64,000 nt of DNA from an uncultured Christensenellaceae bacterium. Lineage in GTDB: Bacteria; Bacillota; Clostridia; Christensenellales; UBA3700. Where the stretch lies: the NCBI GenBank assembly GCA_944381365.1, contig CALWKW010000002.1, positions 385,952-449,951 on the forward strand. The letters are read 5' to 3'. The position numbers and the translations under genes are program-made. The notes under the pieces are model-generated. The model was not told the DNA's origin and ran no database searches. It was given only the letters and a program-made list of their open reading frames with translations. Below, in pieces: positions 13,119 through 45,725 of this stretch. Position 1 is the first letter of the stretch. Each line of letters begins with the position of its first letter.

Positions 13119-13119
13119 A

Positions 13120-14142: not shown

Positions 14143-14158
14143 GTTAGCTTTGGCAAAC
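14143..14158. promoter_or_regulatory. degenerate GTTAG-class site next to the -35 box
   Basis: GTTAGctttggCAAAC, with one mismatch in the right half-site. Confidence 0.3.
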
Positions 14159-24272: not shown

Positions 24273-24359
24273 GCCGAAGTGGTGGAATTGGCAGACGCGC
24301 CGGACTCAAAATCCGGTGATGGCGACATCATGCGGGTTCAAGTCCCGCCTTCGGCACCA
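24273..24359 (+). tRNA. tRNA-Leu (anticodon CAA), CCA encoded
   Basis: Acceptor stem GCCGAAG/CTTCGGC. Anticodon loop CT-CAA-AA. Long variable arm (GGTGATGGCGACATCATG). T-arm GCGGGTTCAAGTCCCGC. 3' end is ACCA. Confidence 0.9.
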
Positions 24360-25020: not shown

Positions 25021-25038
25021 TGTTAATCCTCCTGTTTT

Positions 25039-25594: not shown

Positions 25595-25610
25595 GTTCGC
25601 ATATGCGAAC
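25595..25610. promoter_or_regulatory. GTTCG-class operator-like perfect palindrome (proximal)
   Basis: GTTCGCATATGCGAAC, between the -10 box and the RBS of the DUF3793-flavodoxin operon. Confidence 0.6.
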
Positions 25611-25664: not shown

Positions 25665-25680
25665 GTTCGCATATGCGAAC
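25665..25680. promoter_or_regulatory. GTTCG-class operator-like perfect palindrome (distal)
   Basis: Identical 16-mer GTTCGCATATGCGAAC, centred exactly 70 bp from the proximal copy and upstream of the -35 box. Confidence 0.6.
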
Positions 25681-30800: not shown

Positions 30801-31864
30801 AAATCTCGAGCATAACCAGTGCTTCGATCAAAATAATCGTCGCCTTCTAAGTTCATAAGATCAGAATTATATGCTGTAAGCTGTTTGATAAGCTTATAAT
30901 GTCCGTTCTCTGCTACGATATACGAATATACCGGATGAAAAAAATCTAATATTGCCGCACCTTTATCTAACTCTGTGTAGTGAGTAGGGACAAGATATAT
31001 ACCGTCTTCCAACACTCCATCTATATTGACAAAGGACTGAGAAAAACCGAACAAACAAGTGATATCCACTTTTACTGCATATGATACAGAACAATTATCA
31101 CGATTTTCGCCCGATTCAAGTTTTGATACCCAATTGTAATACTCTACATAAAGAGTGATTGGTTGAGAAATATCCAAATCAGAAATATCATAATATAGAG
31201 TCTGTAATGTACTTGTTCTGTCAAATACGCTAAGTTCTTCTGAGATTCTGCCCGTGCCTCCGTCTGTAAGCGTATATGCTTGCTTAGACATATTTCCGTC
31301 GTTGCCAAAAATAGGTCCACGCTCGTGTGCGTCATACTGAATACGCAACCAAGTACCTAAATCATTTTTTTCTATATATGTTTCGGATGCAATTATGTCC
31401 TCGCTAAAATCACGCCAACCATACTTGTCGGCAAGGATTCCTTTAGCAATACTTTCTTCGTCAATACGAGCCTCAAATTCGATATCGTATTTACCATTGT
31501 TGACTATTGCTTCTTTTTCCCATTTTGCATGCAACATTACATCGCACATTTTCCAATATAAATCTCCATCCGAAACATCACAAGGATCTGTAAAGGCAGA
31601 ATCAAAAAACCAACCGGCAAAGACATATCCCACTCTTTCGGGTATGGGAAGAGTAGGCATATCGTTGGCAGAATAATAGATGTCCGAAATAGGCTCTTCT
31701 AAATTGCCTGCATAGAATGAAATCTTATACTGCTTATCACCATAAGCGTCTTTGATGGCATCCTGAGGTGTATTTATTCCATTCTGCACAGTACAACCTG
31801 CAATGCTTAATGCCATAATCATTAAAAATATCAACAATATAATGCCTTTTATTTTGTTTTTCAA
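27839..31864 (-). CDS. giant (1341-aa) lipoprotein, mostly unassignable; Listeria-Bacteroides-type repeat at both ends
   Basis: TTG start with GGGAGG RBS. Lipobox SIAGC. GYVFAGWFFD near the N-terminus, and GYQQVGWRAD / FAYWAVYVDG near the C-terminus. ATGA overlap with the NEAT gene. Confidence 0.6.
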   Translation of the reverse strand: MKNKIKGIILLIFLMIMALSIAGCTVQNGINTPQDAIKDAYGDKQYKISFYAGNLEEPISDIYYSANDMPTLPIPERVGYVFAGWFFDSAFTDPCDVSDGDLYWKMCDVMLHAKWEKEAIVNNGKYDIEFEARIDEESIAKGILADKYGWRDFSEDIIASETYIEKNDLGTWLRIQYDAHERGPIFGNDGNMSKQAYTLTDGGTGRISEELSVFDRTSTLQTLYYDISDLDISQPITLYVEYYNWVSKLESGENRDNCSVSYAVKVDITCLFGFSQSFVNIDGVLEDGIYLVPTHYTELDKGAAILDFFHPVYSYIVAENGHYKLIKQLTAYNSDLMNLEGDDYFDRSTGYARDFAYFLINSSNTVSQEELNSSNVYIPGLLDAGAYGTLTYEFHADSGKYYYTFDLGNELKKDIILYGGSTGAMEQMFNMPFGYRRLCIGYNSMVRITDWDYTPLKGDSYTYSDNVPFYSGYADVDFANDNTIYSTLQNYEYAVRMVNMFYSSLDGGKTGLVNYDSKMTITPSAQTAEKNVADMRGKLSYFDIVYEAYGYDCKTQGELYSSAVSYLSLINMAATNADRMPVDIGKTIAPNTDVDLVELYQEKVYPTISLSNLEWQAYLLDKNGNIDFSSPINLSRNFKFDEGVAISYTANYENTKRSCIVTLLPQEDPTYEIQDSKWRYDENEDVWITDERFLLGSYVQVPEIRYKWLGREYTTYSLIKYEDGSDEYRTNYLYVAVWKYWNGMYQREYSQFAGSYGEGNNIFTLSSERMRISMRLANRFGEWQTIILEYRGNNVGNYYITDASGGRLQSSDFTYTDGVRDTINYKHIDTYVLQNQTDIANLPQYYDMYITESEQSYLSQLAFSYATIYLRDNTQTINDIGQIWELIENQPYAVITLHYYNNYGDHASCSAMYNFMIDAKSVAEYKFIDDGSALFTGQEIKMERPKIFSGNTSLSRGTYYVYMRSGDNYSYASRDLYTNQSTDFGTVLTFLQEGEYMVELVFAFHTNEYGDPVFSNYDPSDSDTFVTASLCRKFIVYDDKCDIQVTYVTDKEHPFNIDRLNGATITEDQNYYYYTITVSMANNNMSLSSLHFESTKDRLYGWSSTPQMSGYLFKAGSSVGKLGVELGTLKPMIYALWDKGITIKAYYDMDGKDTEYMGEVTYYRPNNGGYSNYTVNIFDFRQFYSFPNGYQQVGWRADKPVFSEGYGSNAVYSYTTDKGFDFSFNVKETFTLWVVVKKVMNISYQAVDENGNSLEFTNIVSGSRNILEDSTIAESVSDSKLDQLNSVTCTNLAKEFAYWAVYVDGEYKQFDLEKDPILIEYISSGNRIILYAVFKDKEMSL

Positions 31865-31910
31865 ATTCTATGCCTCCCTTGTATGTATGCACAAACAATG
31901 CATAATTGCA

Positions 31911-31926
31911 GCCCGTATATACGGGC
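31911..31926 (-). other. intercistronic perfect palindrome / stem-loop
   Basis: GCCCGTATATACGGGC lies in the 83-nt gap between the two giant lipoprotein genes. No T-run follows. Confidence 0.4.
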
Positions 31927-31947
31927 CACAATTATACTTTCTAGTTA

Positions 31948-34900
31948 TTATACTTTGCTTAGTCGAATTTTACCCATGCCTTCTTCTGTATATCCTTGAT
32001 ACCAACCATCTTCAAATACTGATTGATTTGCAGATATAAACTCAGCTAAAGTTTTGCCAGAAAATTCTCCCATATAGTCTGAGTACTGAATATATATATC
32101 TGTACCGCAATCTGTAAATGCATTTTGGTGTATTTTGGATACTGAATTAAAAATAATTGTAGTACTATATGATGTCTTATCATTGATATAGTAGAACGAA
32201 CCTTCCATCACTTCATAATTAATTATATTCTTGCTATCCGTTATATCTCCAAGACTTATCATTACAATATCTTTGTTGGCATTGACAGCTCCTGCACTTG
32301 CAACAAATTTTACATTCCAAGTAGTTACACCGTCTTCTGAAGTTGTTTTACCTGCATACTGATACAATCCGTATCCGCCGTATACGGGTGAGAAACCATC
32401 TATGCCGACAATATCCTGACGAATAAAGAAGTCGCCAACTTTTAAGTCTGATTTTGTCAACATATTTCTATCTTCTTCACCCTTTGCAGGAATAAATTCT
32501 TTTAGCGTTTCTGTCTTAAAAGCGTATGCTCCCACTTCTTTTAGATTTGCAAGAGGCAAAGCAATTTCAGTCAAAGAAGTACCCTCAAAAGCACTTGCGC
32601 CAACAACTTCCAATCCACCTGTTGCAATTTTTGCACCAACAAGACCTTCACACATATAAAAAGCCTTTTCGCCAATAACTTTTACTGAAGAAGGAATGCT
32701 TACATATCCTATATTAATACAATTGGGATTCTTTGTTGCATCGAAAGCTCCGTCTGCAATCTCGGTTACCTTAAGCTTTGCACCATTAATAGTTACTTCA
32801 TTAGGAATACCTACGATATAAAGTCCATTGCTAGTCTTATATCCGTTGTTTGCAAAACCTGTAATCTTTGCAGTACCATCACCATTGTCTTCTGCTATAT
32901 AACCTCCGTCGATCACATAATCACTCACAATGGTCAAATATACATTTGTAGTAAGGTTTTTATCAAAATCATATTCAGCTCCAAACGAAGTTACGCTAGA
33001 AATTTTAAGAACTTTGTCTGTCGAATATGCCTTGTATAGTGATGTGCTATTTGCTGTATCAATAGCTTTCAAAAGTTCATCTAATGTTAGTTTATCATTT
33101 TTGTTCTTTTCAATCTTTGCTGAATAACTCTCGCCTGTAAACTCATTTTTGAGTACAACTTGTACTTGTGGAGTATCTGTTTTTCCAATATAAACAACAA
33201 CATCTTTATATGATGTAGATGTATAGGGTTCATATTGAGATTCTATCATACTGCCATTACCTGTAGGGTCACCCATAAAAGCAAACCCTGCACAATCGCC
33301 TACAAGAGCTTCTCCGTTGAATACTAGATTGATAAGGTCATCTATTTTATTGTATACAGCATATCCGCCAATAGCGATATTACCTCGAGGAGAAGATGCA
33401 AACTGTTCATCCCATAGGAAATTATTACAACCAGAATATGTACTGCTATTATAAGTATAAGCTGCATAATCATTTGCGTTTGCATTATAACCTATATAAT
33501 TGAATGACTCAGGCAAAACAATATAGTTATATGAACGATTCATATAAGTACCTACTTGGATACCTTCTACTCCTTCAGGAACTATAAGAGTACCGCCCTC
33601 TTTACTGTAATCGGCTATAAGAAGAAGTTTACCCTCATGTCCTTGTGCATTGTCTATTTTATATACATAATTTCCATCTCTATAAAACTCGCCAATTTCC
33701 GCAGTTGATTTTGTAGCTTCAAAAATAAAGTTTGCAGGAATCATTGAGAGATTTTTTACACTTGAAGGAACTTTTATATCAAAAGAATAAGGTTCTCCCA
33801 AATTCACTTTTCCTGCAAGACTATTCCAACTTGCATTGCAATTTGCCCAAAAACTTCCTATAATTACTTCTACGCCTTGAGGAATTTCAACAGTTTGTAG
33901 TTTGTTGAGGTTGTTGAAACAATTTATAATCACCTTTAGTGTAGAAGGAAGTGATATTTCTTTTATTGTACAAGCAGTAGACGCATTGATATTTTGTATA
34001 ATAGATATTCCTTCGCCTATTATAAGTTTTTCTATAACAGAACCACTTAATAGGGTACCATTAAGATTTACCTCTTCTACCTTATAGGTTTCTGCAATAC
34101 CATCTTTGTCCATATCAAAAGTAAGCTCTCCGGGAATAGAGATTACGGGTACCGTGTTTGCCTTAGCGTCTGTTTGTGTATCATCATAAATATATTTATC
34201 ATTTTGATACATTGTCAACCTTAAGTTGCCTGTAGCTTCGTTGACTTGATATGCTAAAAATGGAGATCTCCAAGTTACGGTGATGTTGGTATTTTGAGTG
34301 ATAGGCTGAGAAAAATCAAACTCCTTATTATCTTCTCCCCAATATGCTATATCATATTTGGACATATAATTCTTTCTGATTTCTGTCGCCTCAATGCCAC
34401 CTTCAGATGCAGGATTGGTAAATACCGTTCCGGGGGTTACTGTTGTGGTAAATACATCTTCGTATCCATTGTTAAAAGTAATGCGTGCTACTGAACGAGC
34501 ATAAAGCGTAGTAACAATAGATTTGCCGTCCCATTTAGTACTTTCAGTGAAATTAGCGTTAGTGTACCATCCGCTGAACTCCAAGCCTTCGCCCGGATCA
34601 TATGTACCGTTTACTACATCTATTAGATTTTGCGTACCCAAATTTTCGCCGTTGATCACTACTCCTACCTCAATAGGCACAAATTTTGCATATACGCTTA
34701 TACTTTGCTTTATATCCTTATTTGCAAAAGCATCCCCTGTCAAGTCTTGCTTATAATACCAGTTGCTGAAATTATAATACAATTTATCGGGGTTTTTAGG
34801 CATCTCCACTTTTCCGTCCACAACTTCTGCTTCGTGGAAAGATGCCCATTCGCCCTTGTCGTTCTGCACCATAAAGGTGACTTTGGGATTGTCTTTATCA

Positions 34901-34989
34901 CTGTTGCAAGCAGAAAATATAGAAATCCCCGCAAAAATTACTACGACAAGTGCAAGCACGATGAGCAATTTCTTTTTTGCTATTATCAT
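31948..34989 (-). CDS. 1013-aa lipoprotein with Listeria-Bacteroides repeats and BspA-type leucine-rich repeats
   Basis: Lipobox FSAC. Repeats YYNFSNWYYKQD and LEFSGWYTNANF. LRR_5-like segments such as IPSSVKVIGEKAFYMCEGL...VVGASAFEGTSLTEIALP...EVGAYAFK. Confidence 0.65.
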   Translation of the reverse strand: MIIAKKKLLIVLALVVVIFAGISIFSACNSDKDNPKVTFMVQNDKGEWASFHEAEVVDGKVEMPKNPDKLYYNFSNWYYKQDLTGDAFANKDIKQSISVYAKFVPIEVGVVINGENLGTQNLIDVVNGTYDPGEGLEFSGWYTNANFTESTKWDGKSIVTTLYARSVARITFNNGYEDVFTTTVTPGTVFTNPASEGGIEATEIRKNYMSKYDIAYWGEDNKEFDFSQPITQNTNITVTWRSPFLAYQVNEATGNLRLTMYQNDKYIYDDTQTDAKANTVPVISIPGELTFDMDKDGIAETYKVEEVNLNGTLLSGSVIEKLIIGEGISIIQNINASTACTIKEISLPSTLKVIINCFNNLNKLQTVEIPQGVEVIIGSFWANCNASWNSLAGKVNLGEPYSFDIKVPSSVKNLSMIPANFIFEATKSTAEIGEFYRDGNYVYKIDNAQGHEGKLLLIADYSKEGGTLIVPEGVEGIQVGTYMNRSYNYIVLPESFNYIGYNANANDYAAYTYNSSTYSGCNNFLWDEQFASSPRGNIAIGGYAVYNKIDDLINLVFNGEALVGDCAGFAFMGDPTGNGSMIESQYEPYTSTSYKDVVVYIGKTDTPQVQVVLKNEFTGESYSAKIEKNKNDKLTLDELLKAIDTANSTSLYKAYSTDKVLKISSVTSFGAEYDFDKNLTTNVYLTIVSDYVIDGGYIAEDNGDGTAKITGFANNGYKTSNGLYIVGIPNEVTINGAKLKVTEIADGAFDATKNPNCINIGYVSIPSSVKVIGEKAFYMCEGLVGAKIATGGLEVVGASAFEGTSLTEIALPLANLKEVGAYAFKTETLKEFIPAKGEEDRNMLTKSDLKVGDFFIRQDIVGIDGFSPVYGGYGLYQYAGKTTSEDGVTTWNVKFVASAGAVNANKDIVMISLGDITDSKNIINYEVMEGSFYYINDKTSYSTTIIFNSVSKIHQNAFTDCGTDIYIQYSDYMGEFSGKTLAEFISANQSVFEDGWYQGYTEEGMGKIRLSKV

Positions 34990-35060
34990 ATTTTTACTCC
35001 TTTATAATTATTTATTTGAATTCTTCCCCTCAATTAGGAAAGTTTATTCCGAATTTAGTA

Positions 35061-37571
35061 TTAGATATCATATCTCGAAAGAATTTGCGATGGCGTCTTA
35101 AATAGCACAAACAAATATGGTATTAGAGATATAATCATCATTATAATCGCACTTATCGCAAACAATGCAAATGCAAGTCCGATAAATGCACCAAATGCTA
35201 TATTTCCCATAAAGTATCTTATACTCATAACAATAGCAACAATGATAAATGTTATAAGATATCCTATTAGGTTATTGATGCATGCATTTATTGTTTCTTT
35301 GAATAAAAGATTGCTTTTATTCACACCTATAGCACGATAAATACCATACTCTTTGCTATTTTTTATACTTCCTGACTTTTCTATGAAGAAATAAATCAGA
35401 TACATCAATACTGCAGCAACTAAAAATATCATTAGATTACTTAGCGACTGTTTTAGCGTATTGGCTTGTTCTTCTTCATATAATGCACTGAGATTGACTG
35501 CTACCACACCTCTTTCTGCAAGCCTTTGATTTAAGTTTGCAAGTTGTTCTCCTCCCGATGTATTTATCTCAAAATAGTATCCTGAGTCACTTCCCAACGC
35601 ATCAAGATTGGGACGGATATATACAAAAATATCATTGAGAGTATTCTGCGTAACATATATGCGTATATCCGTTGTCATTGCGGACCTTGTGAGTTGCATT
35701 TGTCGAACATACATAGGATAGCTATCTGTCAATGAGATAAGCTGTGGAGAATTGAGAAGTATTTTATTTGCTGATTCTATGAGATAATCCGCCTGCGAAG
35801 TATCTTCAATCATCCTATACACCGCGTTTCTATTGATCTCTACGACCACTTCATCGTTATTGAGATCAAGCGTGTTGCCGTCATACAAACATATTTCTGC
35901 CGAAAAACCATTTATGGTAGATTTTGTCTCTCTATCTATATAACTATCTTTGAAAAACAGATTGGTTCGATCGGTAAAATATATGTCGCCATATACTCCT
36001 AGAAAATTAATATAATCCTCTCTATTCATATAGATAAAAGGCTCGTCGCCATACGCAATACCGCTTATGCTATACTTTTTTTCAAAAAGCATAAGCAATA
36101 TAGAACTGTCATTTTGCAATTCAGCTATACGCAGTTGACTTTTGAGTGTTTGCGCTAGGTTGCGACTGATAAGAACTTCTCCTCTCTTTGGCATATCTCC
36201 ATACTGCAAACCCACGCTTTTAGCCGTTGAATCGCTTGGCAAGGATCTAGGCTCGTATTTTACCTTAATTCCCGACAACGACTGAATGTTGTTGTACGAA
36301 AATAATCCCTCGATATAATCTAATGCAAAGAAATCTATGTCATTATACAAAGGTACTGATTGTCTGTTCAATCTGCTTACCTCTGCATATGAATTCATAT
36401 CTACATACACGCTCGCATTGCCCAATGGTTTTTTCTCATCTGTCAAATTGATTGCTTCAAAGGCAAAGAATGAAAAAAAACACATTATTACTGCCATTGC
36501 AACAATAAATATCTGCTTAAATATATTTGCAGTAGAATATAGTTTTTCTTCTCCATTCAGACGAAACTGCCTTAATATATTTTTGAATCTAAATAGCCTG
36601 CCATTATGCTTTGTTTGGCTTTTTTCAAACATTACCATATTGGCTTTACAAGAATTTACACTATCTTCATTCCTACCATTAAAAACCAAACGCTTTTCGC
36701 TTGTATCATCAAGAATAGTTACATTTTTCCCTGCACGAATATAAAGTTCGTCGTTTTTATTGATAATTTGTATTTTATCTTTTTTCTCAATAGTCGAACC
36801 AAATACTTCGATATTCAACCCCTCTGCTTTATATTCACGAGCATCTTTTTCGTCTACAAATATATCGTTTGTCTGCGTTTCATAGTTTGCAACCTCTTCA
36901 AGATAGGCGTCTTCCACTAGTTGGCCGTCTACTATTTTGATAAAACTATCTGCATATTCCTTTATTAGCATTATTTCATGCGTAACAAGAACCACAAGCC
37001 TTGTCTTGGATATTTCCTTTAATATATTCATAACCTTGATTGTATTTTGAGCATCAAGATTACCAGTAGGTTCGTCCGCAAGTATAATGTCCGCTCCTTT
37101 TATAAGAGCTCTTGCTATGGCTACACGCTGTTTTTGCCCGCCTGACAATGCGTCACCTTGCTTGTTTTTATATCGCTCCATATCCACTATTTTCAAGACT
37201 TCGTCACTGCGTCTTTTTATTTCCGCTTCGTCCTTAAATCCTGCAATATACATTGCATTGTGCATTATTTCGGATATGGTATATCCACCTTCTAGATAGT
37301 AGTTTTGAAAAATAAAACCTATTTTTTCATTGCGAATTTTATCTACCTTTCGCCCTACACATTCGCCGTCGATATATATCTTGCCACTATCCTGCTTTTC
37401 AAGCCCACCGATAATGTTCAAAAGCGTGGTTTTACCACTACCGGATTTTCCAAAAATCGCAACAAGACCTTTTTCAGGTAATTCAAAAGATACTCCTTTC
37501 AACACCTGATTACGATTGAGGGAGCGGGGATTAAATACTTTGCTTATATTTTCAACCTTTATTTTTGCCAT
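35061..37571 (-). CDS. fused MacB-type ABC protein (N-terminal ATPase + FtsX-like permease), 836 aa
   Basis: GKSGSGKTT, LSGGQKQR and ILADEPTGNLD. One TM, then a large extracytoplasmic domain, then three C-terminal TM helices. Confidence 0.8.
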   Translation of the reverse strand: MAKIKVENISKVFNPRSLNRNQVLKGVSFELPEKGLVAIFGKSGSGKTTLLNIIGGLEKQDSGKIYIDGECVGRKVDKIRNEKIGFIFQNYYLEGGYTISEIMHNAMYIAGFKDEAEIKRRSDEVLKIVDMERYKNKQGDALSGGQKQRVAIARALIKGADIILADEPTGNLDAQNTIKVMNILKEISKTRLVVLVTHEIMLIKEYADSFIKIVDGQLVEDAYLEEVANYETQTNDIFVDEKDAREYKAEGLNIEVFGSTIEKKDKIQIINKNDELYIRAGKNVTILDDTSEKRLVFNGRNEDSVNSCKANMVMFEKSQTKHNGRLFRFKNILRQFRLNGEEKLYSTANIFKQIFIVAMAVIMCFFSFFAFEAINLTDEKKPLGNASVYVDMNSYAEVSRLNRQSVPLYNDIDFFALDYIEGLFSYNNIQSLSGIKVKYEPRSLPSDSTAKSVGLQYGDMPKRGEVLISRNLAQTLKSQLRIAELQNDSSILLMLFEKKYSISGIAYGDEPFIYMNREDYINFLGVYGDIYFTDRTNLFFKDSYIDRETKSTINGFSAEICLYDGNTLDLNNDEVVVEINRNAVYRMIEDTSQADYLIESANKILLNSPQLISLTDSYPMYVRQMQLTRSAMTTDIRIYVTQNTLNDIFVYIRPNLDALGSDSGYYFEINTSGGEQLANLNQRLAERGVVAVNLSALYEEEQANTLKQSLSNLMIFLVAAVLMYLIYFFIEKSGSIKNSKEYGIYRAIGVNKSNLLFKETINACINNLIGYLITFIIVAIVMSIRYFMGNIAFGAFIGLAFALFAISAIIMMIISLIPYLFVLFKTPSQILSRYDI

Positions 37572-37572
37572 A

Positions 37573-39642
37573 TTACTTAGATCCCCTTCTTAAACTCTTG
37601 CGAATAGATTGACTATTGATGCTTTTATTGAATCCGTATGCTACAAACTCTACAATCAACAACATCATTATTTCAATAAATATATAGTTGCCTATTGAAA
37701 TTAGCATAAAATTGCTTCCCGGCAAAATCGCCATAATGAGGCTTACAATAGGCAAAAGTATTAGAGTAGGCAAGAAAATAAACAACATTTGCATATAAAG
37801 ACTGTTGGCACTTATTTTTCGCGATATGCCAAGCGTTCGATATACAGAAAAATCAGCTTGATAAATCTTTACGCTTCGCATAAAAATAACGCTTATCAAC
37901 ATTGCAAATATAAGCCCCACTGCAATTAGTGCTAAATACCACAATATGTTGATTGTGAATACATCCATCACATCTTGTACATATACAGTTGTAGTCGATA
38001 GCATACCTATATACCCTTCAGGTAGTAATGCTATTGCAGCTTTTGCCTCATCGTTATTTTTATAAAACAGCACGCTTTGCACCGCATTATCATCGCTCAA
38101 AAACATTGCTTCATAATCCCCTCGATTCATCTGAACAATAAGTCCGGATACTTCGTTATTCTTTTCGTCTGAGCGAATAACTATATATGATTTATCTGTT
38201 TTTGCATCAAATACTACAGTCTTGCCATCAGCTGAATAAAAATTTGAGTTTACTAAATTTACTTGTCCCTCAAGCAAATTTTCATTTACTTCGAAACTAT
38301 AGACTCTCGTCTTATCCGTCCCGAAAGTCATCATCGAATACAAAGCTTGGATTTTTTCTCCGTATTCGTTCAAATCATCATAACTTAAATATAGATATAC
38401 TCCATCTACATTCAAACTGCTCTCTATGGATATTTCATACAATCCTATACCCGCATTCAAAAAAGCTTCTTTAATGGTATCAGCATCACCCTTTTGCGAA
38501 TTAGGTACAACAAGTACAGCTTTTCCCGCTTCGATATTATGCTCATAAGGAGAATAAAGACACACAATTTCGTGTTCTCGCAACATACCGCCTAATTTAG
38601 GAATACTTACGCTAAACTGTGAAAGTTCTCTGTCCAAAAAGAAAAATCCGGCTTTTGTCTTGCCCGCAACCTCGTCAAGTTGCTTTTGCGTTATTTTGTT
38701 TTGCTGATTAGAGATTATGACCTTACCGGTTATCCCTGTGTGATCCAATGTTGTCGTTGTTGGCTTAATAAGTCCCTGTCCGAATATTGCCACAACGAAA
38801 AACATAGTAATTGCACATACAAACAACGCAAATGACATCATTAAAGTGAACTTCGGACGACTCTTATAATTGAGCGCTCCTATGTGGAAAGTGTTTTTTA
38901 GGTTAAGCCATTTGCTTACTTTGCGGTCTTCTTTTTTTTCTTCTGTTTCCTCTCTTTCTTTTGGCTTCGTTATCAATTTATCTTCACTGATTTTTCCGTC
39001 AAATACACGAATTCTCCTCGTCGCATACTCTTTGAAAAATTCAGGGTTGTGCGTTACTACAATTACCAATTTGTCTTTCGACAACTCTTTGAGTAACGAC
39101 GCTACCTCTTTGCTCGCTTTTACATCCAAGTTACCCGTAGGCTCATCTGCAAGTATAACAGGACTATCCTTTGCCAAAGCTCTTGCAATTACCGTCCTCT
39201 GCTTTTCTCCGCCGGACAACTTGCTTCCTCTTTGATTTATCTGCTTGCCAAGTCCTACCCTCTCTATGAGCTCTTTTGCTCGTCTTCTTCTCTCTTTTTT
39301 ATCCTCTATTCTCAACAATGCCAGCTCTACATTTTCCAGCACCGTAAGATTTTCTATTATATTAAAGTCTTGAAATATCGTGGCAATATTGTTTTCTCTG
39401 TACCTTTCCCAATCGCTTTCGGAATAGTGCGAAGTTTCTTCTCCGTTAAAATACAACTCTCCTTCTTCGTATGTATCGTTGGCGCCTATGACATTCAAAA
39501 GCGTACTCTTTCCCGAACCGCTCTCTCCCTCGATTGTTACAAACTCGTTGTAATCCAACTCGAGATTAATACCTCTGATTCCTATGGTAAATATTCCGTT
39601 GCTGTCATAAATCTTTCCGATATTCTTTAGCTTTAATAACAT
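37573..39642 (-). CDS. fused MacB-type ABC protein (N-terminal ATPase + FtsX-like permease), 689 aa
   Basis: GESGSGKST, LSGGEKQR and ILADEPTGNLD. Topology is 1 + 3 TM with a ~300-aa external loop. A 1-nt gap separates it from the next gene. Confidence 0.8.
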   Translation of the reverse strand: MLLKLKNIGKIYDSNGIFTIGIRGINLELDYNEFVTIEGESGSGKSTLLNVIGANDTYEEGELYFNGEETSHYSESDWERYRENNIATIFQDFNIIENLTVLENVELALLRIEDKKERRRRAKELIERVGLGKQINQRGSKLSGGEKQRTVIARALAKDSPVILADEPTGNLDVKASKEVASLLKELSKDKLVIVVTHNPEFFKEYATRRIRVFDGKISEDKLITKPKEREETEEKKEDRKVSKWLNLKNTFHIGALNYKSRPKFTLMMSFALFVCAITMFFVVAIFGQGLIKPTTTTLDHTGITGKVIISNQQNKITQKQLDEVAGKTKAGFFFLDRELSQFSVSIPKLGGMLREHEIVCLYSPYEHNIEAGKAVLVVPNSQKGDADTIKEAFLNAGIGLYEISIESSLNVDGVYLYLSYDDLNEYGEKIQALYSMMTFGTDKTRVYSFEVNENLLEGQVNLVNSNFYSADGKTVVFDAKTDKSYIVIRSDEKNNEVSGLIVQMNRGDYEAMFLSDDNAVQSVLFYKNNDEAKAAIALLPEGYIGMLSTTTVYVQDVMDVFTINILWYLALIAVGLIFAMLISVIFMRSVKIYQADFSVYRTLGISRKISANSLYMQMLFIFLPTLILLPIVSLIMAILPGSNFMLISIGNYIFIEIMMLLIVEFVAYGFNKSINSQSIRKSLRRGSK

Positions 39643-39656
39643 TTGCTCTCCATATA

Positions 39657-39672
39657 GTTCGCATTGACGAAC
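39657..39672. promoter_or_regulatory. GTTCG-class operator-like site in the ABC operon leader
   Basis: GTTCGcattgaCGAAC, immediately upstream of the GGAGAG RBS of the first ABC gene. Confidence 0.5.
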
Positions 39673-39785
39673 TTGACTATATATTTATGCGGTTGCAACA
39701 GTCTGTTTTCTTCACTTCCTAATAGCGTTTAACACGAATTAGTTTAATGATAAAACAAATCTTTTAAACTTGCAAAAGAGATTTT

Positions 39786-39801
39786 GTTAGCCAAGGCTAA
39801 C
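39786..39801. promoter_or_regulatory. GTTAG-class operator-like perfect palindrome
   Basis: GTTAGCCAAGGCTAAC. On the minus strand it is directly preceded by TGcTATAAA (extended -10-like box). Confidence 0.55.
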
Positions 39802-39811
39802 TTTATAGCAT

Positions 39812-39838
39812 AAAAAAATTAATGCTTCTATCAAGCAT
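39812..39838 (-). terminator. terminator downstream of the DtxR-like genes
   Basis: ATGCTT-gatag-AAGCAT on the minus strand followed by a run of 7 T. It lies 49 nt after the stop codon at 39887. Confidence 0.55.
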
Positions 39839-39842
39839 ATTT

Positions 39843-39872
39843 ATTATAAAAGCACGCAAATCTTAATGTCAA
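39843..39872 (-). promoter_or_regulatory. consensus-like promoter of uncertain function
   Basis: TTGACA, 18 nt, TATAAT on the minus strand. However, the terminator hairpin starts within about 10 nt of the predicted start site, so the role is ambiguous. Confidence 0.3.
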
Positions 39873-39886
39873 TTTGTAGCCTTGGC

Positions 39887-40258
39887 TTACAACTGATTTT
39901 TTTCGACAGATTTTAAGCTGATGATAAGTTTTGCGTTTTCACTCATTGAACAATAAGCATTTGAAGCTTCTCTATACGATATTTTACTGTTTATACCGCA
40001 AGTATTTTCTAGTACCTCTTGCAAAAACCTGATACCATTTCTTACTTCCTCAAGTTTTTCTTTTCCCTTTTCTGTCAAAAACCATTTCCCTTCTTTTGTC
40101 GTGTCGATAAGCTTGTTTGCCCTCAACTTTTCCATTGCCCTATATGAGCTTACTCTGGATACTCCCAACTTTGTCGCTATACTTGCCATATTGAAGTTTT
40201 CGTTTTGCTTACAAAGGCTGTCGATACAATCGAGATACTTATATTGTGATGCCGTCAT
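39887..40258 (-). CDS. DtxR-family-like regulator lacking the canonical metal ligands (paralogue 1)
   Basis: 123 aa. wHTH block IATKLGVSRVSSYRAMEKLRANKLI plus a helical dimerisation region. The positions equivalent to the DtxR ligand residues read ASQYKYLDC and NAYCSMSE. Confidence 0.55.
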   Translation of the reverse strand: MTASQYKYLDCIDSLCKQNENFNMASIATKLGVSRVSSYRAMEKLRANKLIDTTKEGKWFLTEKGKEKLEEVRNGIRFLQEVLENTCGINSKISYREASNAYCSMSENAKLIISLKSVEKNQL

Positions 40259-40264
40259 ATTAAT

Positions 40265-40280
40265 GTTCGTATTAGCGAAC
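40265..40280. promoter_or_regulatory. GTTCG-class operator-like site between SD and start codon of paralogue 1
   Basis: GTTCGtattagCGAAC. Confidence 0.5.
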
Positions 40281-40340
40281 CCCTCCTTATATTTTTATGG
40301 CAATTTTATTGCCATTATGATACGATTTTTTAATTCGCTT

Positions 40341-40356
40341 GTTCGCAAAAGCGAAC
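40341..40356. promoter_or_regulatory. GTTCG-class operator-like site upstream of paralogue 1
   Basis: GTTCGcaaaagCGAAC, which is palindromic over GTTCGC/GCGAAC. Confidence 0.5.
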
Positions 40357-40415
40357 CTCGGGACTATTTTTTTGACGGTCCGTGCCGTCAACCTTTATTT
40401 ATTCCTATGCAAAAC

Positions 40416-40787
40416 TCAGTCTTTGTTTTTTACATAATTCTTGATTATTTCAAAGACATCTTTAGATATTACATGCTCTATACGACAAGCATTCTCCTCT
40501 GCGGATTTTTTCTCTGCCCCAAGACTTACAAGCAAGCTTGTGATAACCTCGTGTCTTTCGTATATTTCAACTGCTCTTTGATACCCTTCTTTGGTAAAAT
40601 TAATCTCACCGCTCTCGTGAGATATAGTAATATATCCTTTTTTTTGCAAAAGATTAACGCCTCTCGATACGCTAGATTTTGCATAATCCATAGACTCTAC
40701 AATATCTACTGACCTTACCGAAGGCTTTTGATTTTTCAACAAATATATTGTCTCAAGATACATTTCTTCTGATTCTTTTGTTCTCAT
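40416..40787 (-). CDS. DtxR/IdeR-family metal-dependent repressor (short form, paralogue 2)
   Basis: SEEMYLETIYLL (compare DtxR TEMYLRTIYEL), ERHEVITSLL, and NACRIEHVIS with the C-x-x-E-H arrangement of the DtxR primary metal site. Confidence 0.8.
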   Translation of the reverse strand: MRTKESEEMYLETIYLLKNQKPSVRSVDIVESMDYAKSSVSRGVNLLQKKGYITISHESGEINFTKEGYQRAVEIYERHEVITSLLVSLGAEKKSAEENACRIEHVISKDVFEIIKNYVKNKD

Positions 40788-41128: not shown

Positions 41129-42856
41129 TTATATCTTCCATTCACTGGATTTTGATTGAAGCTCTTTCATTTTATTATATGCTCTGCTATTTGTTTCAAG
41201 TTCTTTCGGCGAGCCCTGTGCCTCAACAACTCCGTCTTTAATCATCACTAATTTATCTGCTTTTGCCACAGTTCGCATTCTGTGAGCTATTATCAGCACC
41301 GTTTTATTTTTTACAAGAGTGGAAATAGCTTTCTGAATTTCGGTTTCGTTTTCCACATCGAGGCTGGCAGTTGCTTCGTCCAACAGAACAATCGGTGCGT
41401 CTTTAAGCAAAGCTCTTGCAATAGATATTCTCTGTCTTTCGCCTCCCGACAACATACTGCCGTTTTCTCCGATTACGGAATCGTAACCATTGGGCAATTT
41501 ATTGACAAATTCATCACACCTTGCCGCTTTTGCCGCTCGTATAACTTCTTCGTCGCTAGCGTCTTTTTTACCTATTCGAATATTTTCCTTTATCGTATTG
41601 TTGAATAGCGTAACATCCTGAAATACTATAGAATATTTATTCATAAGCGTTTCGGGATCAACCTCCGAAATATCTTCTCCGCCTACGGATATTTTTCCGC
41701 CTTGAATATCCCAAAATCTTGCTGCCAGTTTTGCAATAGTGGATTTTCCGCCGCCGCTAGGACCTATTAAAGCAGTTATTTCACCTTGTTTTGCCACAAA
41801 AGATACACCGTTCAACACCTGTTCATCTTGATTATAAGCAAATTTTACATCATTGAATTCTATATCATAATTCTTTGGTTCAAAAACTTTCTTACCGTCC
41901 TGTATAGGCGACTGGTATATTTCTTTCATTCTGCCGATATTGATTCTGCAAGATATTACTGCCGCCAAATTCGTAAGCGCACTATTCATAGGATCGTATA
42001 CTCTCGACACTACCAACAAAAACATAAAGAAAGTCATCAGCGTCAACTTGTTGTCAGACAATAGAAGTCCGCCAGCCAAAGCAGTTGTTGCTATCCCAAA
42101 CTTTAGGACTAATTGTGCACTTACTACAAAAATAGCCGTCATATATTCGCTTGTAATATGTCTTTTTTCCACACAATTAATTTTCTTTTTAAGTCCTTCC
42201 AAATATTTATCCTCTGCATTACACGACTTAAGATCTCTGATACTTTCAAGACATTCTTGAATGCCGTCTGCCAAAGCCAAGTCAGCATTGTGCTTTTTAC
42301 GGTTGAATATATTCTGAACCTTTCCGGACGAGGCTACGATAATTATGGCAACAGGCAATACCCACATAGACGCAAGAGCCATTTGCCAATTGTATATAAA
42401 CAACATAACGGCAATTAAAGTCGTGCTGATAAATGAGGCAACTAATTCGGGATAAAAGTGCGAAAAACTAGTTTCTATAAAAGCACAATCGCCCATAATA
42501 GTAGTAGTCAAATCCGATAAATCTTTTTTACCGAAGTAAGACAACGGCAGTTTTCTCATTCTCTCCGCAAGCGATATGCGACGGTTTGCACTTTCTTTGT
42601 ATGTAGTAAGATAATTGCAATTATACTGTATATAATTTGTAAGATACATAACAATCAAAATACCCAGACTGCACAATATGTAGAACAAATAATTGTAATT
42701 GCTTTTTCCGCTTACAAATGTATCGACAAGAATATACAGCAATGACACGGGAAACATTTTGACCAAATTTACGACAGTACCTGCAACACAAGCTTTTATA
42801 TAATCGACTGCCCCTTGACGGGATAGTGCATATTTTTTCATTAATGCATTAACCAT
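41129..42856 (-). CDS. ABC exporter-fold half transporter (TMD-NBD)
   Basis: 575 aa. Motifs GPSGGGKST, LSGGERQR and VLLDEATASLD. Confidence 0.9.
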   Translation of the reverse strand: MVNALMKKYALSRQGAVDYIKACVAGTVVNLVKMFPVSLLYILVDTFVSGKSNYNYLFYILCSLGILIVMYLTNYIQYNCNYLTTYKESANRRISLAERMRKLPLSYFGKKDLSDLTTTIMGDCAFIETSFSHFYPELVASFISTTLIAVMLFIYNWQMALASMWVLPVAIIIVASSGKVQNIFNRKKHNADLALADGIQECLESIRDLKSCNAEDKYLEGLKKKINCVEKRHITSEYMTAIFVVSAQLVLKFGIATTALAGGLLLSDNKLTLMTFFMFLLVVSRVYDPMNSALTNLAAVISCRINIGRMKEIYQSPIQDGKKVFEPKNYDIEFNDVKFAYNQDEQVLNGVSFVAKQGEITALIGPSGGGKSTIAKLAARFWDIQGGKISVGGEDISEVDPETLMNKYSIVFQDVTLFNNTIKENIRIGKKDASDEEVIRAAKAARCDEFVNKLPNGYDSVIGENGSMLSGGERQRISIARALLKDAPIVLLDEATASLDVENETEIQKAISTLVKNKTVLIIAHRMRTVAKADKLVMIKDGVVEAQGSPKELETNSRAYNKMKELQSKSSEWKI

Positions 42857-44636
42857 TTTGCTCCTCCTTTGTCACATTCCATTCTACTGAAGTGATATAA
42901 TCTTTCCACATCTTTGAATAAACGCCGCCCTCTTTAACTAAATCTTTGTGTGTACCGCTTTCAACGACTTTGCCTTCAGAAAGCACAAATATATTATCGA
43001 CATCGACAATTGTGGATAATCTGTGGGCAATCATAAGCACAGTTTTCCCTTTTGTCAAAAACTTGAGAGCGTGTTGTACCATATGCTCGTTTTCAGGATC
43101 GGCAAAGGCAGTAGCTTCATCCAGAACCACTATAGGAGCATTTTTTAATATCGCTCTTGCGATAGCTATTCTCTGGCACTCGCCTCCGGATAAATATACA
43201 CCGTTTTTTCCTATAACCGTATCCATTCCCTCCGGTAATTTTGCAAGAATATCATCGCATTGAGCATAGTGCAAGGCATCTCGCACCTCTTCCCTCGATG
43301 CTTTGGGATTTGCAAGTCGTACATTTTCCAAAATCGATGTTTTTAACAATTTGCTATCTTGAAATACATATGATACATAATCGGAAAGTTCGATTTTGCT
43401 TATATCCTTAACATTTACTCCGCCTATAAGTATTTCGCCGCTCTTAACGTCCCAAAATCTAGACACTAAACCTGCCAACGTTGTTTTTCCGCTGCCGCTT
43501 TCTCCTACCAATGCTACTTTCTGTCCCGCCTCTATCGATATGTCGATACCGTCCAAAGCATTAATATCTGAATCGGGATATGAAAAGCTTACGTTTTTGA
43601 TTTCTATACTGTTATTCACAGGCTTTACGCTTTTATCCGGCTCGACCAATTGATTTACATTCATAATACGATCTATCCTATTTAGCGCATCCTTTACTAT
43701 CATATTGTTTTCGCTCATATACATGATTCTGGTGATAGTAAGTACCAAAAGAGGCGAAAATATTATATAAAATACCAAGTCAGTAATAAATGATTTATCA
43801 GCAGGGGCTCTGCCTACAATAAGCAAACTTACAGCAATCAAAAATACAAAAACTGAATCAATCAGCAATGTAAAAAACATCATAGGCTGTCGCAATTGTT
43901 TGGTATATTCAACCACCCACTTATGATAGCTGTCAATACTCGCTTTGAATTTTGCAAAAGAAAACACTGTCTGTCCGAAAGTCTTTACGACAGGTACGCC
44001 TCTTATATACTCTACTGCTTCGTTGTTCATATCCATAAGGGCATCGTTGTATTGTTTCATTTTTTCCTGCATTCTCTTGCCTGTCATTTTGGACATAATC
44101 AAAAAAGCACAAATTACCGGAGCAAGACAAGCAAGCCCGAGTCTCCAATCAAATACGAATAATAATACTATTATTGCCAAAGGAGTAACAATAGCCCCTA
44201 TCAAATCGGGAAGATTGTGTGCTAAGTATGTTTCTGTTGCAGAACTCGATTCGCTGATAGTTTTTCTAATCTTTCCGCTACCTATCAAATCAAATGCTCC
44301 TACAGGCAACTTTACCACATGTTCCAAAGTGCTTTTTCTTATGTTTGCCGCTACCCTGAAAGCCGATATATGCGAACACATCAATGAACCGACATAAACT
44401 ATAATTGAAAGAACGGCAAACAATACAGCCATCCAGCCGTAATAGGCTATATTGCTAGCTTTATCGAATTCAGGGGCGACAGCCAACACATCTCTTATCA
44501 TATACCAAATATATACGAAAGGCATAAGAGCAAGTACCGCACTAATTGCTGAAAGAATAAGCGAGGTATATGTTAGATATTTACGATTGCCCGCATATTC
44601 CATTAAACGTCCCAAAGGTTTATCTTTTTTTTGCAT
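42849..44636 (-). CDS. ABC exporter-fold half transporter (TMD-NBD)
   Basis: I place the start at MQKKDKPLG (AAGGAGG RBS, ATG at 44636). Motifs GESGSGKTT, LSGGECQR and VVLDEATAFAD. Confidence 0.9.
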   Translation of the reverse strand: MQKKDKPLGRLMEYAGNRKYLTYTSLILSAISAVLALMPFVYIWYMIRDVLAVAPEFDKASNIAYYGWMAVLFAVLSIIVYVGSLMCSHISAFRVAANIRKSTLEHVVKLPVGAFDLIGSGKIRKTISESSSATETYLAHNLPDLIGAIVTPLAIIVLLFVFDWRLGLACLAPVICAFLIMSKMTGKRMQEKMKQYNDALMDMNNEAVEYIRGVPVVKTFGQTVFSFAKFKASIDSYHKWVVEYTKQLRQPMMFFTLLIDSVFVFLIAVSLLIVGRAPADKSFITDLVFYIIFSPLLVLTITRIMYMSENNMIVKDALNRIDRIMNVNQLVEPDKSVKPVNNSIEIKNVSFSYPDSDINALDGIDISIEAGQKVALVGESGSGKTTLAGLVSRFWDVKSGEILIGGVNVKDISKIELSDYVSYVFQDSKLLKTSILENVRLANPKASREEVRDALHYAQCDDILAKLPEGMDTVIGKNGVYLSGGECQRIAIARAILKNAPIVVLDEATAFADPENEHMVQHALKFLTKGKTVLMIAHRLSTIVDVDNIFVLSEGKVVESGTHKDLVKEGGVYSKMWKDYITSVEWNVTKEEQNG

Positions 44637-44693
44637 TCTTTTTACCTCCTTGATTTTATTATACAAAGAGATATTCAAAAACAAAAATTTTAA

Positions 44694-45683
44694 TTATACC
44701 CTAACGGGCGAAATAATATCCCAATCAGACAAATTTGCATTTTTTCTATATTGTCTTGGCGTTATTTTATAAAAATTAACAAATGCTTTAGAAAATTTAC
44801 TTTCACTCAAATACCCCACATCTTTAGCGATTTGAGATATCTTATCGTTTGTTTTAACCAATTTAGCTCCCGCAACTTGCATACGACAAATATTAATATA
44901 TTTATGAATAGAACAACCATATAATATTTTAAATTGAGTTTTCAAAGAAGATTGACTGATGCCAAATCGTTCTGACAGCTTTTTTATTGTTAAGTCATTA
45001 TCCAAATTATCCCAAAAATATAATTCGATTTTTTCAATTAGTTGTGCCGATTCTTTCGATAAAAAACTTCCCTTAGATATTTCATTATCAAAATCAATAG
45101 TATTCAAAAATAATAACAGTTCAAGTATTTTTATCTTAAAATAGCCCATTCTGTTATTGGGTTTGACAAGATAAAGTTCATCAAAAATATGCTCTATCCT
45201 TTCGTTTGCTCTTAATAAATACACTCCTCCCGCCTTCTTCGTATCATCAACTATTTTATTGATATTAATTTCCATAGTTTTCAATAAATCTTTGAATACG
45301 CTGTCTTTGGCCGTGTATATCATTATCGTAATTCCGTGATAGTGCCTTATAGGCATTGCAGCCCTGCAAATTTCCCCATAATCCATATTATGGACACAAA
45401 TATCTCCTGCCCCTATATAAAAGTGTCTTCCGTCAAGAAAATCCGCTTCGAATCTTCCCTCTTTACAATGCTCGATAATTAATAATGAATCGCCTGTTGT
45501 TCCCTCTCCGAATGATTTCATATGCATATCATCAAAAAGTATCAATACATCATCAAACACTTCGTATTCCGTAATTATACCGCTTCCTGTATCGTTTTCC
45601 AAATAATACTTTTTGCAATCTTCAGACAACTCAATTTTTAATTTGTCTCCCTTTTTCAAACATTCTTGACGATAAACTTCCAT
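44694..45683 (-). CDS. AraC-family regulator with N-terminal cupin-like sensor domain
   Basis: C-terminal double HTH: LTIKKLSERFGISQSSLKTQFK...ISQIAKDVGYLSESKFSKAFVNFYKITPRQYRK. Confidence 0.9.
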   Translation of the reverse strand: MEVYRQECLKKGDKLKIELSEDCKKYYLENDTGSGIITEYEVFDDVLILFDDMHMKSFGEGTTGDSLLIIEHCKEGRFEADFLDGRHFYIGAGDICVHNMDYGEICRAAMPIRHYHGITIMIYTAKDSVFKDLLKTMEININKIVDDTKKAGGVYLLRANERIEHIFDELYLVKPNNRMGYFKIKILELLLFLNTIDFDNEISKGSFLSKESAQLIEKIELYFWDNLDNDLTIKKLSERFGISQSSLKTQFKILYGCSIHKYINICRMQVAGAKLVKTNDKISQIAKDVGYLSESKFSKAFVNFYKITPRQYRKNANLSDWDIISPVRV

Positions 45684-45709: not shown

Positions 45710-45725
45710 GTTAGAGAAAGCTAAC
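45710..45725. promoter_or_regulatory. GTTAG-class operator-like site at the AraC/ABC operon start site
   Basis: AAAGTTAGagaaagCTAACTTT (8 + 8 nt symmetric). It begins 8 nt downstream of the -10 box. Confidence 0.55.

Follow-up and report, generated by a model that had tools for sequence, protein, structure and literature searches.

A 64,000-nucleotide (nt) stretch of contig CALWKW010000002.1 (assembly GCA_944381365.1, positions 385,952 to 449,951) from an uncultured Christensenellaceae bacterium, referred to here as the window, encodes two DtxR-family paralogues, P2 and P1, and carries a set of short palindromes in two flavours, GTTAG-N6-CTAAC and GTTCG-N6-CGAAC. On balance, comparative sequence evidence makes it probable that these palindromes are single-dimer DtxR operators, and that one base per half-site separates the regulons of P2 and P1. 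P2, which has Ala and Ser at the positions equivalent to DtxR residues 37 and 39, very likely binds the GTTCG class; for P1, the GTTAG class is favoured by a slight degree. An initial annotation of this DNA had recognised two DtxR-family paralogues and nine palindromes; the regulators are borne out, P2 by Pfam thresholds and P1 by profile and predicted fold, and the list of nine sites is exact, all of them being intergenic and upstream of minus-strand genes. The two genes and the palindromes, including a tenth that had not been listed before, are given below (SD, Shine-Dalgarno sequence; ABC, ATP-binding cassette; LRR, leucine-rich repeat).

40416-40787, minus strand: P2, predicted two-domain DtxR-family repressor, 123 amino acids (aa)
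39887-40258, minus strand: P1, predicted divergent DtxR-fold regulator of an unnamed subfamily, 123 aa
13986-14001: candidate GTTAG operator (exact match), about 20 nt upstream of the YgbA_NO gene
14143-14158: degenerate GTTAG-class site with a single mismatch (GTTAGCTTTGGCAAAC), abutting a TTGACA -35 box
25595-25610: candidate GTTCG operator (exact match, GTTCGCATATGCGAAC), immediately ahead of the SD of the DUF3793-flavodoxin operon, on the downstream side of the -10 box
25665-25680: candidate GTTCG operator (exact match), identical in sequence to the site at 25595, upstream of the -35 box of the same promoter
39657-39672: candidate GTTCG operator (exact match; minus-strand reading GTTCGTCAATGCGAAC), 5 nt ahead of the SD that serves the first fused ABC gene
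39786-39801: perfect candidate GTTAG operator (exact match, GTTAGCCAAGGCTAAC), in the leader of the fused-ABC/LRR/NEAT operon
39876-39890: degenerate GTTAG-like palindrome (minus-strand reading GTAAGCCAAGGCTAC), abutting a -35 box and overlapping the P1 stop codon; the tenth palindrome
40265-40280: candidate GTTCG operator (exact match; minus-strand reading GTTCGCTAATACGAAC), between an SD-like AAGGAGG and the P1 start codon
40341-40356: candidate GTTCG operator (exact match, GTTCGCAAAAGCGAAC), in the P1 upstream region
45710-45725: candidate GTTAG operator (exact match), 8 nt downstream of a TTGACA-17-TATAAT promoter, ahead of an AraC-type regulator and an ABC pair

The eight exact matches to GTTMG-N6-CKAAC (three GTTAG, five GTTCG) compare with a mean of 0.10 and a maximum of 2 in dinucleotide-preserving shuffles of the window, none of 100 reaching eight. 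The half-sites extend to six bases, GTTAGC-N4-GCTAAC and GTTCGC-N4-GCGAAC, and sites were scored over these 12 positions (consensus GTT[A/C]GC-N4-GC[T/G]AAC) with a threshold of at most two mismatches. At this threshold all nine sites in the window are intergenic and none lies in coding sequence, in a stretch that is 87% coding and 13% intergenic; at three mismatches only background appears (intergenic to coding 3:4 and 6:10). A chance origin of the sites is ruled out by the shuffles and by this intergenic-only placement. The comparison of intergenic with coding frequencies that the initial annotation had proposed, run here on the window, thus comes out at 9:0, and its distinction of two flavours one base apart per half-site proves real and separable; none of the nine sites combines mixed half-sites (GTTAG...CGAAC).

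The classical 19-bp DtxR/IdeR box (TTAGGTTAGGCTAACCTAA) consists of two overlapping TTAG-N6-CTAA units, one per dimer, and on alignment with this box GTTAG-N6-CTAAC is its single-dimer unit. Since the classical box splits in this way, the 6-nt spacing is not unusual; its earlier description as different from the 19-bp box is misleading, as that box contains the same unit. The flanks of the 16-bp sites contain no conserved second unit, and thus no 19-bp double-dimer box. Across 60 sites, positions 6 and 11 are 91% C/G, and the arms are invariant in sequence across distant taxa. LexA was considered and rejected as the binding protein: its Cheo box, CGAAC-N4-GTTCG, has half-sites in the opposite orientation and at another spacing. 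The GTTCG class departs from the TTAG-N6-CTAA unit only at T3. In IdeR-DNA crystal structures, Ser37 and Pro39 are in van der Waals contact with T3 of each CCTAA repeat, and a T3-to-G3 change abolishes IdeR binding (PMC8464063); the sole difference between CTAAC and CGAAC is this contacted base.

P2 scores above the Pfam gathering thresholds for PF01325 (42.0 bits, cutoff 26) and PF02742 (51.7 bits, cutoff 27), and matches the PDB sequences of IdeR, DtxR and MntR at expectation values (E) of about 1e-10. In the alignment, Met9, Cys101, Glu104 and His105 correspond to the DtxR primary-site ligands Met10, Cys102, Glu105 and His106; of the ancillary positions (DtxR His79, Glu83, His98), His79 is kept, with Thr at 83 and Glu at 98. 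The MntR oxygen-ligand set Asp8/Glu99 is absent, Met and Cys occupying those columns. P2 has no C-terminal SH3-like third domain; it ends at residue 123, and the DtxR alignment stops at about 120. By these ligands and domains, P2 is a bona fide two-domain DtxR with a predicted Met/Cys/Glu/His iron site. The recognition helix A36-K-S38-S-V-S-R42 places Ala and Ser at DtxR positions 37 and 39. No site at two or fewer mismatches occurs in the promoter region of P2, so that both parts of the earlier description, primary-site ligands retained and no site in its own promoter, agree with the alignment and the scan. The 2017 homologues come mostly from Acutalibacteraceae, Ruminococcaceae and other Clostridia metagenome bins, and wherever the source gives a name they are labelled "metal-dependent transcriptional regulator".

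The flavour read by P2 can be approached through loci (numbered L001 onwards) gathered in three ways: via proteins, by a metagenome scan that used the motif only and required two GTTCG sites at a distance of 40-70 nt, and by targeted look-ups. Among them, P2-type proteins with informative neighbourhoods fall into two groups:

Ser39 (helix A/S-K-S-S-V-S), in the window, L027/L028, L060 and L065/L134: GTTCG sites
Pro39 (helix S-K/R-P-S), in L004, L006, L012 and L136: GTTAG sites

Residue 39 follows the flavour without exception in all eight independent lineages, four of each kind (hypergeometric p = 1/70). For L012 and L136 the flavour was predicted before inspection and confirmed in both, L012 having six GTTAG sites and zero GTTCG sites, and L136 zero perfect GTTCG sites beside four perfect GTTAG sites and a fifth with one mismatch. 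The strongest single evidence for the flavour assignment is, on comparison of the loci, a switch in an orthologous operon: DUF3793(-flavodoxin) genes carry dual GTTCG sites about 69 bp apart in eight loci of Ser39 context (the window, L027, L028, L043, L055, L060, L070 and L108), and in L136, with its Pro39 protein, they carry GTTAGCATACGCTAAC, of the GTTAG class, instead. L136 also has GTTAG sites at AraC and at a FecCD uptake operon, and no P1-family gene within the 20 kb examined. The motif-only scan, which used no protein information, recovered feoA in nine loci, DUF3793 in seven and DtxR-family genes in eleven, in addition to YgbA_NO and ABC genes. In L065 and L134 a P2-type gene is followed by dual GTTCG sites and then by feoA, with no P1-family gene on either fragment. 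The probable assignment of P2 to GTTCG draws on the residue-39 covariation, the DUF3793 operon switch and the regulon content of the motif-only scan. The initial annotation had considered the pairing of protein and flavour beyond reach from sequence; for P2-type proteins it can be inferred, residue 39 covarying with the flavour base in eight independent lineages.

Some further observations concern the GTTCG loci and P2-type proteins. Three feoA promoters (L047, L057, L133) have a row of three GTTCG operators spaced by 33 nt, close to three helical turns, which suggests cooperative binding on one face of the DNA. In L136, two degenerate GTTCG-like palindromes, 31 bp apart (17333-17379), precede a GerE-type regulator despite the Pro39/GTTAG character of this locus. 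Many dual GTTCGC-N4-GCGAAC matches in metagenomes (L041, L042, L116 and others among L016-L135) are regularly spaced identical repeats, for example with a period of 76-77 bp; they look like repeat arrays unrelated to iron regulation. The P2-type protein P0096, with Ala39, has no sites nearby in three loci and is uninformative.

P1 shares 22% identity with P2 (E 0.03) and matches no Pfam family at cutoff, PF01325 and PF02742 included; it matches the NCBIfam MntR model at E 3.6e-8, below the model cutoff. The family to which it belongs comprises 63 clusters at 50% identity in an exhaustive HMMER search, with proteins of 120-130 aa, and 224 clusters in a profile search; 25 of 34 members match PF01325 at E<1e-3, and one of 34 matches PF02742. 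Databases name the family no further than "helix-turn-helix domain-containing protein". Its hidden Markov model matches P2-type proteins at 1e-13 to 1e-17, and its profile matches solved MntR, SloR, ScaR, IdeR and DtxR over positions 8-120 (E 2.5e-9 to 1e-4). The AlphaFold2 model of P1 (predicted local distance difference test score, pLDDT, 93.4; predicted template modelling score, pTM, 0.81) finds DtxR, MntR, IdeR and SloR as top Foldseek matches, with template modelling (TM) scores of 0.70-0.80 and probability 1.00. By profile and predicted fold, P1 is a true relative of the DtxR family.

Six of the seven DtxR metal ligands are lost in P1: Lys7 takes the place of Met10, and Cys102, Glu105, His79, Glu83 and His98 have no equivalents. 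Across the family, position 10 is Lys/Arg, 79 is Ile/Val, 98 is Tyr/Phe, and 83, 102 and 105 are variable non-ligands; two cysteines are conserved, Cys87 (near position 90) and Cys103 (at the His106 position). As P1 fails this ligand test, it should not be called a metal-dependent repressor. The ligand map and the site list together uphold the earlier description of P1 as lacking the ligands and being preceded by two GTTCG sites, which are 76 bp apart. The recognition helix S34-R-V36-S places Ser and Val at DtxR positions 37 and 39.

Two observations touch the P1 protein itself. In its protein cluster, some database gene calls begin at Met24 and give 100 aa. Protein P0002, on a 1.7-kb ENA contig, joins the first ~85 P1 residues (96% identical) to a C-terminus matching the sigma-70 region 4/helix-turn-helix Pfam families; it may be a genuine fusion variant or else an artefact of assembly or frameshift.

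The operons behind the sites of the window are the following:

24601-25581, minus strand: DUF3793 gene (25039-25581) and flavodoxin gene (24601-25020), with GTTCG sites
26535-39642, minus strand: fused-ABC/LRR/NEAT operon, with both flavours in its control region
9712-13966, minus strand: GTTAG operon of YgbA_NO (13619-13966), a 172-aa protein and two exporter-fold ABC proteins
41129-45683, minus strand: GTTAG operon of an AraC-family regulator and two exporter-fold ABC proteins

The attribution of the GTTAG class to P1 draws on synteny, on composite promoters and on an analogy between Val39 and Pro39. Elsewhere, P1-family genes head operons of YgbA_NO with an ABC pair (L007, L008, L009, L014), of an ABC pair (L179) and of fused ABC with LRR genes (L015), and all of these have GTTAG in the leader; the gene order of the 26535-39642 operon recurs after the P1-family gene of L015, and the YgbA_NO/ABC gene set of the window recurs after those of L007, L008, L009 and L014. 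The GTTAG sites of the window sit on exactly the operon types that are syntenic with P1-family genes elsewhere. Composite promoters, with a GTTAG-like palindrome at -35 and GTTCG in the leader, occur in L013, L090, L028 (imperfect) and the ABC operon of the window, and imply two different binders. Val39, hydrophobic like Pro39, could pack on the thymine methyl group. Position 37 is Ser/Thr and position 39 is Val in the P1 family whichever flavour precedes the gene; because the helix is constant across flavours, it offers no usable covariation. Lys/Arg at DtxR position 38 of this family was tried as a flavour determinant and rejected, as the Arg-type member in L012 has only GTTAG sites.

GTTAG-like palindromes lie 2-8 nt upstream of the -35 hexamer in nine promoters (39876 and 14143 in the window, and L010, L012, L013, L014, L028, L090 and L136). 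They occur even where the leader sites of the lineage are GTTCG, which points to another binder or to looping that joins upstream and leader sites. A dual-GTTAG motif-only scan, run on viral contigs only, was uninformative: none of its 37 loci has a DtxR-family gene, and many are dense phage arrays. In the viral contigs L144, L151, L157, L161, L173 and L178, arrays of 5-11 copies of GTTAGC-N4-GCTAAC are spaced at 20-40 bp, and these probably serve an unrelated DNA-binding protein as iteron- or centromere-like repeats.

In the wiring that these observations suggest, Fe(II)-loaded P2 would under iron-replete conditions occupy the GTTCGC(A)-N2-(T)GCGAAC sites and repress the DUF3793-flavodoxin operon, the P1 gene and, through the leader site, the ABC/LRR/NEAT operon. 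Under iron starvation the P2 targets would be released and P1 would be made; P1 would then act on GTTAGC-N4-GCTAAC at the YgbA_NO/NEAT-like/ABC operon, at the AraC/ABC operon, and at the promoter and leader of the ABC/LRR/NEAT operon. The flavour base would be read by residues 37 and 39, Ser39 going with G (CGAAC), and Pro39 and presumably Val39 with T (CTAAC). P2 repressing both P1 and the haem-like operon, and P1 repressing the same operon, would form an incoherent feed-forward loop or an AND gate, in which the ABC/LRR/NEAT operon is expressed only if iron is low and P1 is released. P1 should therefore respond to some ligand, as the operon would otherwise be closed again by newly made P1; haem would be a reasonable guess, from the NEAT and NEAT-like proteins and the two conserved cysteines. 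The initial annotation had proposed a two-tier cascade, in which a metal-sensing paralogue controls a ligand-less one and the latter recognises the other flavour. Its first half is supported, in that Ser39 P2-type proteins go with GTTCG and P1 is preceded by two sites of this class; its second half, recognition of GTTAG by P1, has the more indirect basis given above.

A more comprehensive joint reading would make P1 part of a widespread clade of gut Clostridia regulators that gave up metal sensing, kept two cysteines, came to sense another ligand, haem being the most attractive in view of the linkage with NEAT, YgbA_NO and ABC operons, and serves as a second node under the iron sensor; the paralogues would be insulated by one base pair per half-site, read by residue 39, with Ser/Pro/Val39 forming a specificity code contrary to purely indirect readout, and the leader hairpin and T-run described below would possibly add roadblock-assisted termination. 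Taken as a whole, this chain is rather unlikely to hold.

As a caveat, a number of observations weigh against the assignments made here. The IdeR study itself favours indirect readout, and its P39G variant still binds (PMC8464063); residue 39 may mark specificity without causing it. Three of the four lineages with Ser39 came to light through the GTTCG search, so that in these only the residue is independent, and the P2-type loci L001, L002, L003, L005 and L139 have no site nearby and are uninformative. For P1, the Val39 family members in L028, L108 and L044 have only GTTCG nearby, L028 having no perfect GTTAG site in 13 kb; the Pro39 P2-type proteins could be the true binders in GTTAG lineages, which confounds the link between P1 and GTTAG; the search for DtxR paralogues covered the window, with one P2-type and one P1-family gene; and the phage-like contigs with GTTAGC-N4-GCTAAC arrays have no DtxR-family gene nearby.

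Several other arrangements have to be weighed against one-base separation of a P2 and a P1 regulon. One of them, rather improbable, would involve a single family: P2-type proteins bind both flavours, GTTAG is read by a Pro39 paralogue outside the window, and P1 binds something else or nothing. The covariation of residue 39 with flavour is indeed confined to the P2-type family, the P1-family helix being the same for either flavour, and in L004 and L136, fragments with no P1-family gene, Pro39 P2-types suffice to explain every GTTAG site. However, the window contains exactly one P2-type and one P1-family gene, nearly all close P2 homologues have Ser39, P1-family genes are syntenic with the GTTAG operon types of the window, and the DtxR DNA-binding fold of P1, with Ser37 and Val39, is complete and predicted with confidence. 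If instead both proteins bound both flavours at differing affinity, or formed heterodimers, the flavours would tune affinity; the abolition of IdeR binding by the T3-to-G3 change (PMC8464063), the clean flavour split with no mixed half-sites in the nine window sites, and the wholesale switch of the DUF3793 operator with P2 residue 39 make such shared specificity quite unlikely, even if P1 and P2 are homologous with the same predicted dimerisation fold, tandem P2-type and P1-family genes in L006 and L012 (Pro39) have only GTTAG around them, and the half-site variants ACGAAC and GCGAAC suggest graded affinities.

The opposite assignment, in which P1 autoregulates through its two GTTCG sites and P2 binds GTTAG, would fit the habit of most local repressors to autoregulate, the resemblance of GTTAG to the classical TTAG...CTAA half-sites, and the dual GTTCG sites directly ahead of the P1-family gene in L013 and in the window. 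It is nevertheless very unlikely, given that L065 and L134 combine a P2-type gene, dual GTTCG and feoA on fragments with no P1-family gene; that P2-types by GTTCG are Ser39 in five of five cases and those by GTTAG Pro39 in four of four; that the P1-family helix recurs unchanged in L009 (GTTAG) and almost unchanged in L028 (GTTCG); and that the canonical iron-starvation genes flavodoxin and feoA carry the flavour that tracks P2. Most improbable of all is an RNA-level element, with the palindromes acting as mRNA hairpins by ribosome-binding sites on translation or stability. The hairpins do not include the SD; the palindromes at 25665, 14143 and 39876, placed upstream of -35 boxes as inferred, would be outside the transcripts of those promoters; the arms are invariant in sequence and not merely complementary, with 91% C/G at positions 6/11; and the sites have no Rfam match and co-occur with DtxR-family genes. 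In favour of an RNA-level role are the three GTTCG sites that abut an SD, and the possible folding of transcribed palindromes at -5 to -9.8 kcal/mol, one with z = -3.9.

Among characterised regulators, DtxR (Corynebacterium diphtheriae) and IdeR (Mycobacterium, Saccharopolyspora) are closest to P2 in having a winged helix-turn-helix domain followed by a dimerisation and metal-binding domain, the primary site Met10, Cys102, Glu105 and His106 together with His79, and an operator unit of TTAG-N6-CTAA per dimer. P2 differs from them in lacking the SH3-like domain and in having Ala37/Ser39 rather than Ser37/Pro39; its inferred operator has G where IdeR requires T, and its sites, unlike the 19-bp double-dimer box, are separate single-dimer units, in most cases paired at a distance of 33-86 bp and often in the leader by the SD. 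The Mn(II)-dependent MntR (Bacillus subtilis, E. coli) shares the two-domain size and architecture of P1 and P2 and is among the best sequence and fold matches; in contrast to its Asp8/Glu99, P2 has the Met/Cys ligands of an iron sensor, and P1 has neither set. SSO2273 (PDB 2x4h) gives the P1-family profile its best sequence match (E 2.5e-9) and is also among the top fold matches (TM 0.74), but this archaeal, uncharacterised protein is only 16-18% identical and has no known link to such operators. In Corynebacterium glutamicum, iron-loaded DtxR represses the gene for RipA, which then controls further iron-related genes; the two-tier logic is the same, the second regulator being AraC-type there and a degenerate sensor paralogue with an operator one base away here. 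In haloarchaea, several DtxR paralogues (Halobacterium Idr1, Idr2, SirR and TroR; Haloferax TroR) cross-regulate and share iron targets (PMC5737653, PMC3074139, PMC10783522). These networks differ from P1 and P2 in being archaeal and in that their paralogues are described as metal-responsive, and the accessible parts of these papers describe no one-base operator code or residue-39 covariation. The literature consulted, in which few subscription journals were covered, yielded no account of the P1/P2 regulators, of DUF3793 regulation or of this operator and its half-sites, nothing relevant on DtxR in Clostridia, and no description of the combination of a sensor with an adjacent ligand-less paralogue, operators one base apart and residue-39/base-3 covariation.

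Iron regulation in the abundant gut Oscillospirales is essentially uncharted. In Clostridioides difficile, flavodoxin and feoAB are Fur-regulated, according to the accessible part of one report (PMC6311696); if the assignment proposed here is true, a DtxR-type protein would govern these genes in the gut Oscillospirales. A specificity rule at repeat position 3, Ser39 going with G and Pro/Val39 with T, would bear on the question of direct versus indirect readout in IdeR and DtxR. The same assignment would point to a family of DtxR-fold proteins that lack metal sites, in about 220 or more clusters, as a possible new effector class, would provide a natural example of duplicated regulators insulated by a one-base operator change, and would permit the prediction of iron and haem regulons in uncultured gut bacteria from their genomes.

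The placement of the sites relative to genes and promoters adds some detail. In the DUF3793-flavodoxin operon (Pfam matches DUF3793, 3.9e-51, and Flavodoxin_1, 6.5e-20), the sites at 25595 and 25665 flank the promoter 70 bp apart; the former is not within the DUF3793 gene, which has its start codon at 25581, and the latter is outside the transcript of this promoter. In the 26535-39642 operon, two fused ABC genes of MacB-like type encode products of 689 and 836 aa; downstream of them are genes for an LRR_5/Flg_new protein of 1013 aa, a protein of 1327 aa and one with a NEAT domain. In the YgbA_NO operon, the 172-aa protein (13120-13638), encoded between YgbA_NO and the ABC genes, matches a NEAT domain weakly (E 2.9e-4, below cutoff), and the exporter-fold ABC pair beside it may handle haem, as this match hints. 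The AraC-family regulator with its two exporter-fold ABC proteins (41129-45683) presumably resembles the Yersinia siderophore-import system YbtA-YbtPQ. For ABC pairs of exporter fold, the earlier label "uptake-type" is unproven.

The control region of the fused-ABC/LRR/NEAT operon contains two further elements:

39839-39872, minus strand: consensus sigma-70-type promoter, with TTGACA-18-TATAAT at 39843-39872, matching 12 of 12 hexamer positions
39812-39838, minus strand: 5'-proximal hairpin ATGCTT-gatag-AAGCAT followed by TAATTTTTTT, between the promoter and the GTTAG operator

Given this perfect promoter, the GTTAG site at 39786 probably lies in the leader, at about +35 and after the 5' hairpin and T-run, and not at a -10 box; the earlier statement that GTTAG sites sit at or just after -10 boxes is therefore doubtful for this site. 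A hairpin followed by a T-run between promoter and first operator occurs in 17 of 28 regulatory regions, compared to 7.6% of shuffled controls; in three of the 17 the hairpin and the operator palindrome coincide, and two or three could be terminators belonging to the preceding gene. The leader hairpin starts roughly where transcription is inferred to begin, and 15-22 nt separate its end from the operator; with its T-run it is also present in L006, L009, L015, L028, L051, L090, L134, L136 and L179. It might stabilise the 5' end of the mRNA, or serve as a weak terminator whose efficiency is raised by a repressor acting as roadblock. No Rfam family matched the leaders, and weak matches to microRNA models merely mirror the inverted repeat between 39786 and 39876.

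P1 is without an SD at normal spacing; the SD-like AAGGAGG is 23 nt upstream of its ATG, with the 16-nt GTTCG operator between them (40258-40290), and an RNA hairpin of -5 kcal/mol in this segment could bring the SD nearer to the start codon. A third DtxR-like subfamily, without metal ligands and without conserved Cys, is present in higher-GC organisms (L051, L090, L119, L120); its members start with MTSSLL.Y and have the helix GVARASV, with Ala at both 37 and 39. Each of these genes is directly preceded by two GTTCG sites 79-86 bp apart, and in L090 there is also a GTTAG site at -35. In L179, about 650 nt upstream of the P1-family/ABC operon (positions ~250-900) contain no open reading frame of more than ~70 codons in any frame. 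The sole Rfam match in the window is a tRNA gene (24273-24356, plus strand, 57 bits) between the pyrophosphatase and flavodoxin genes.

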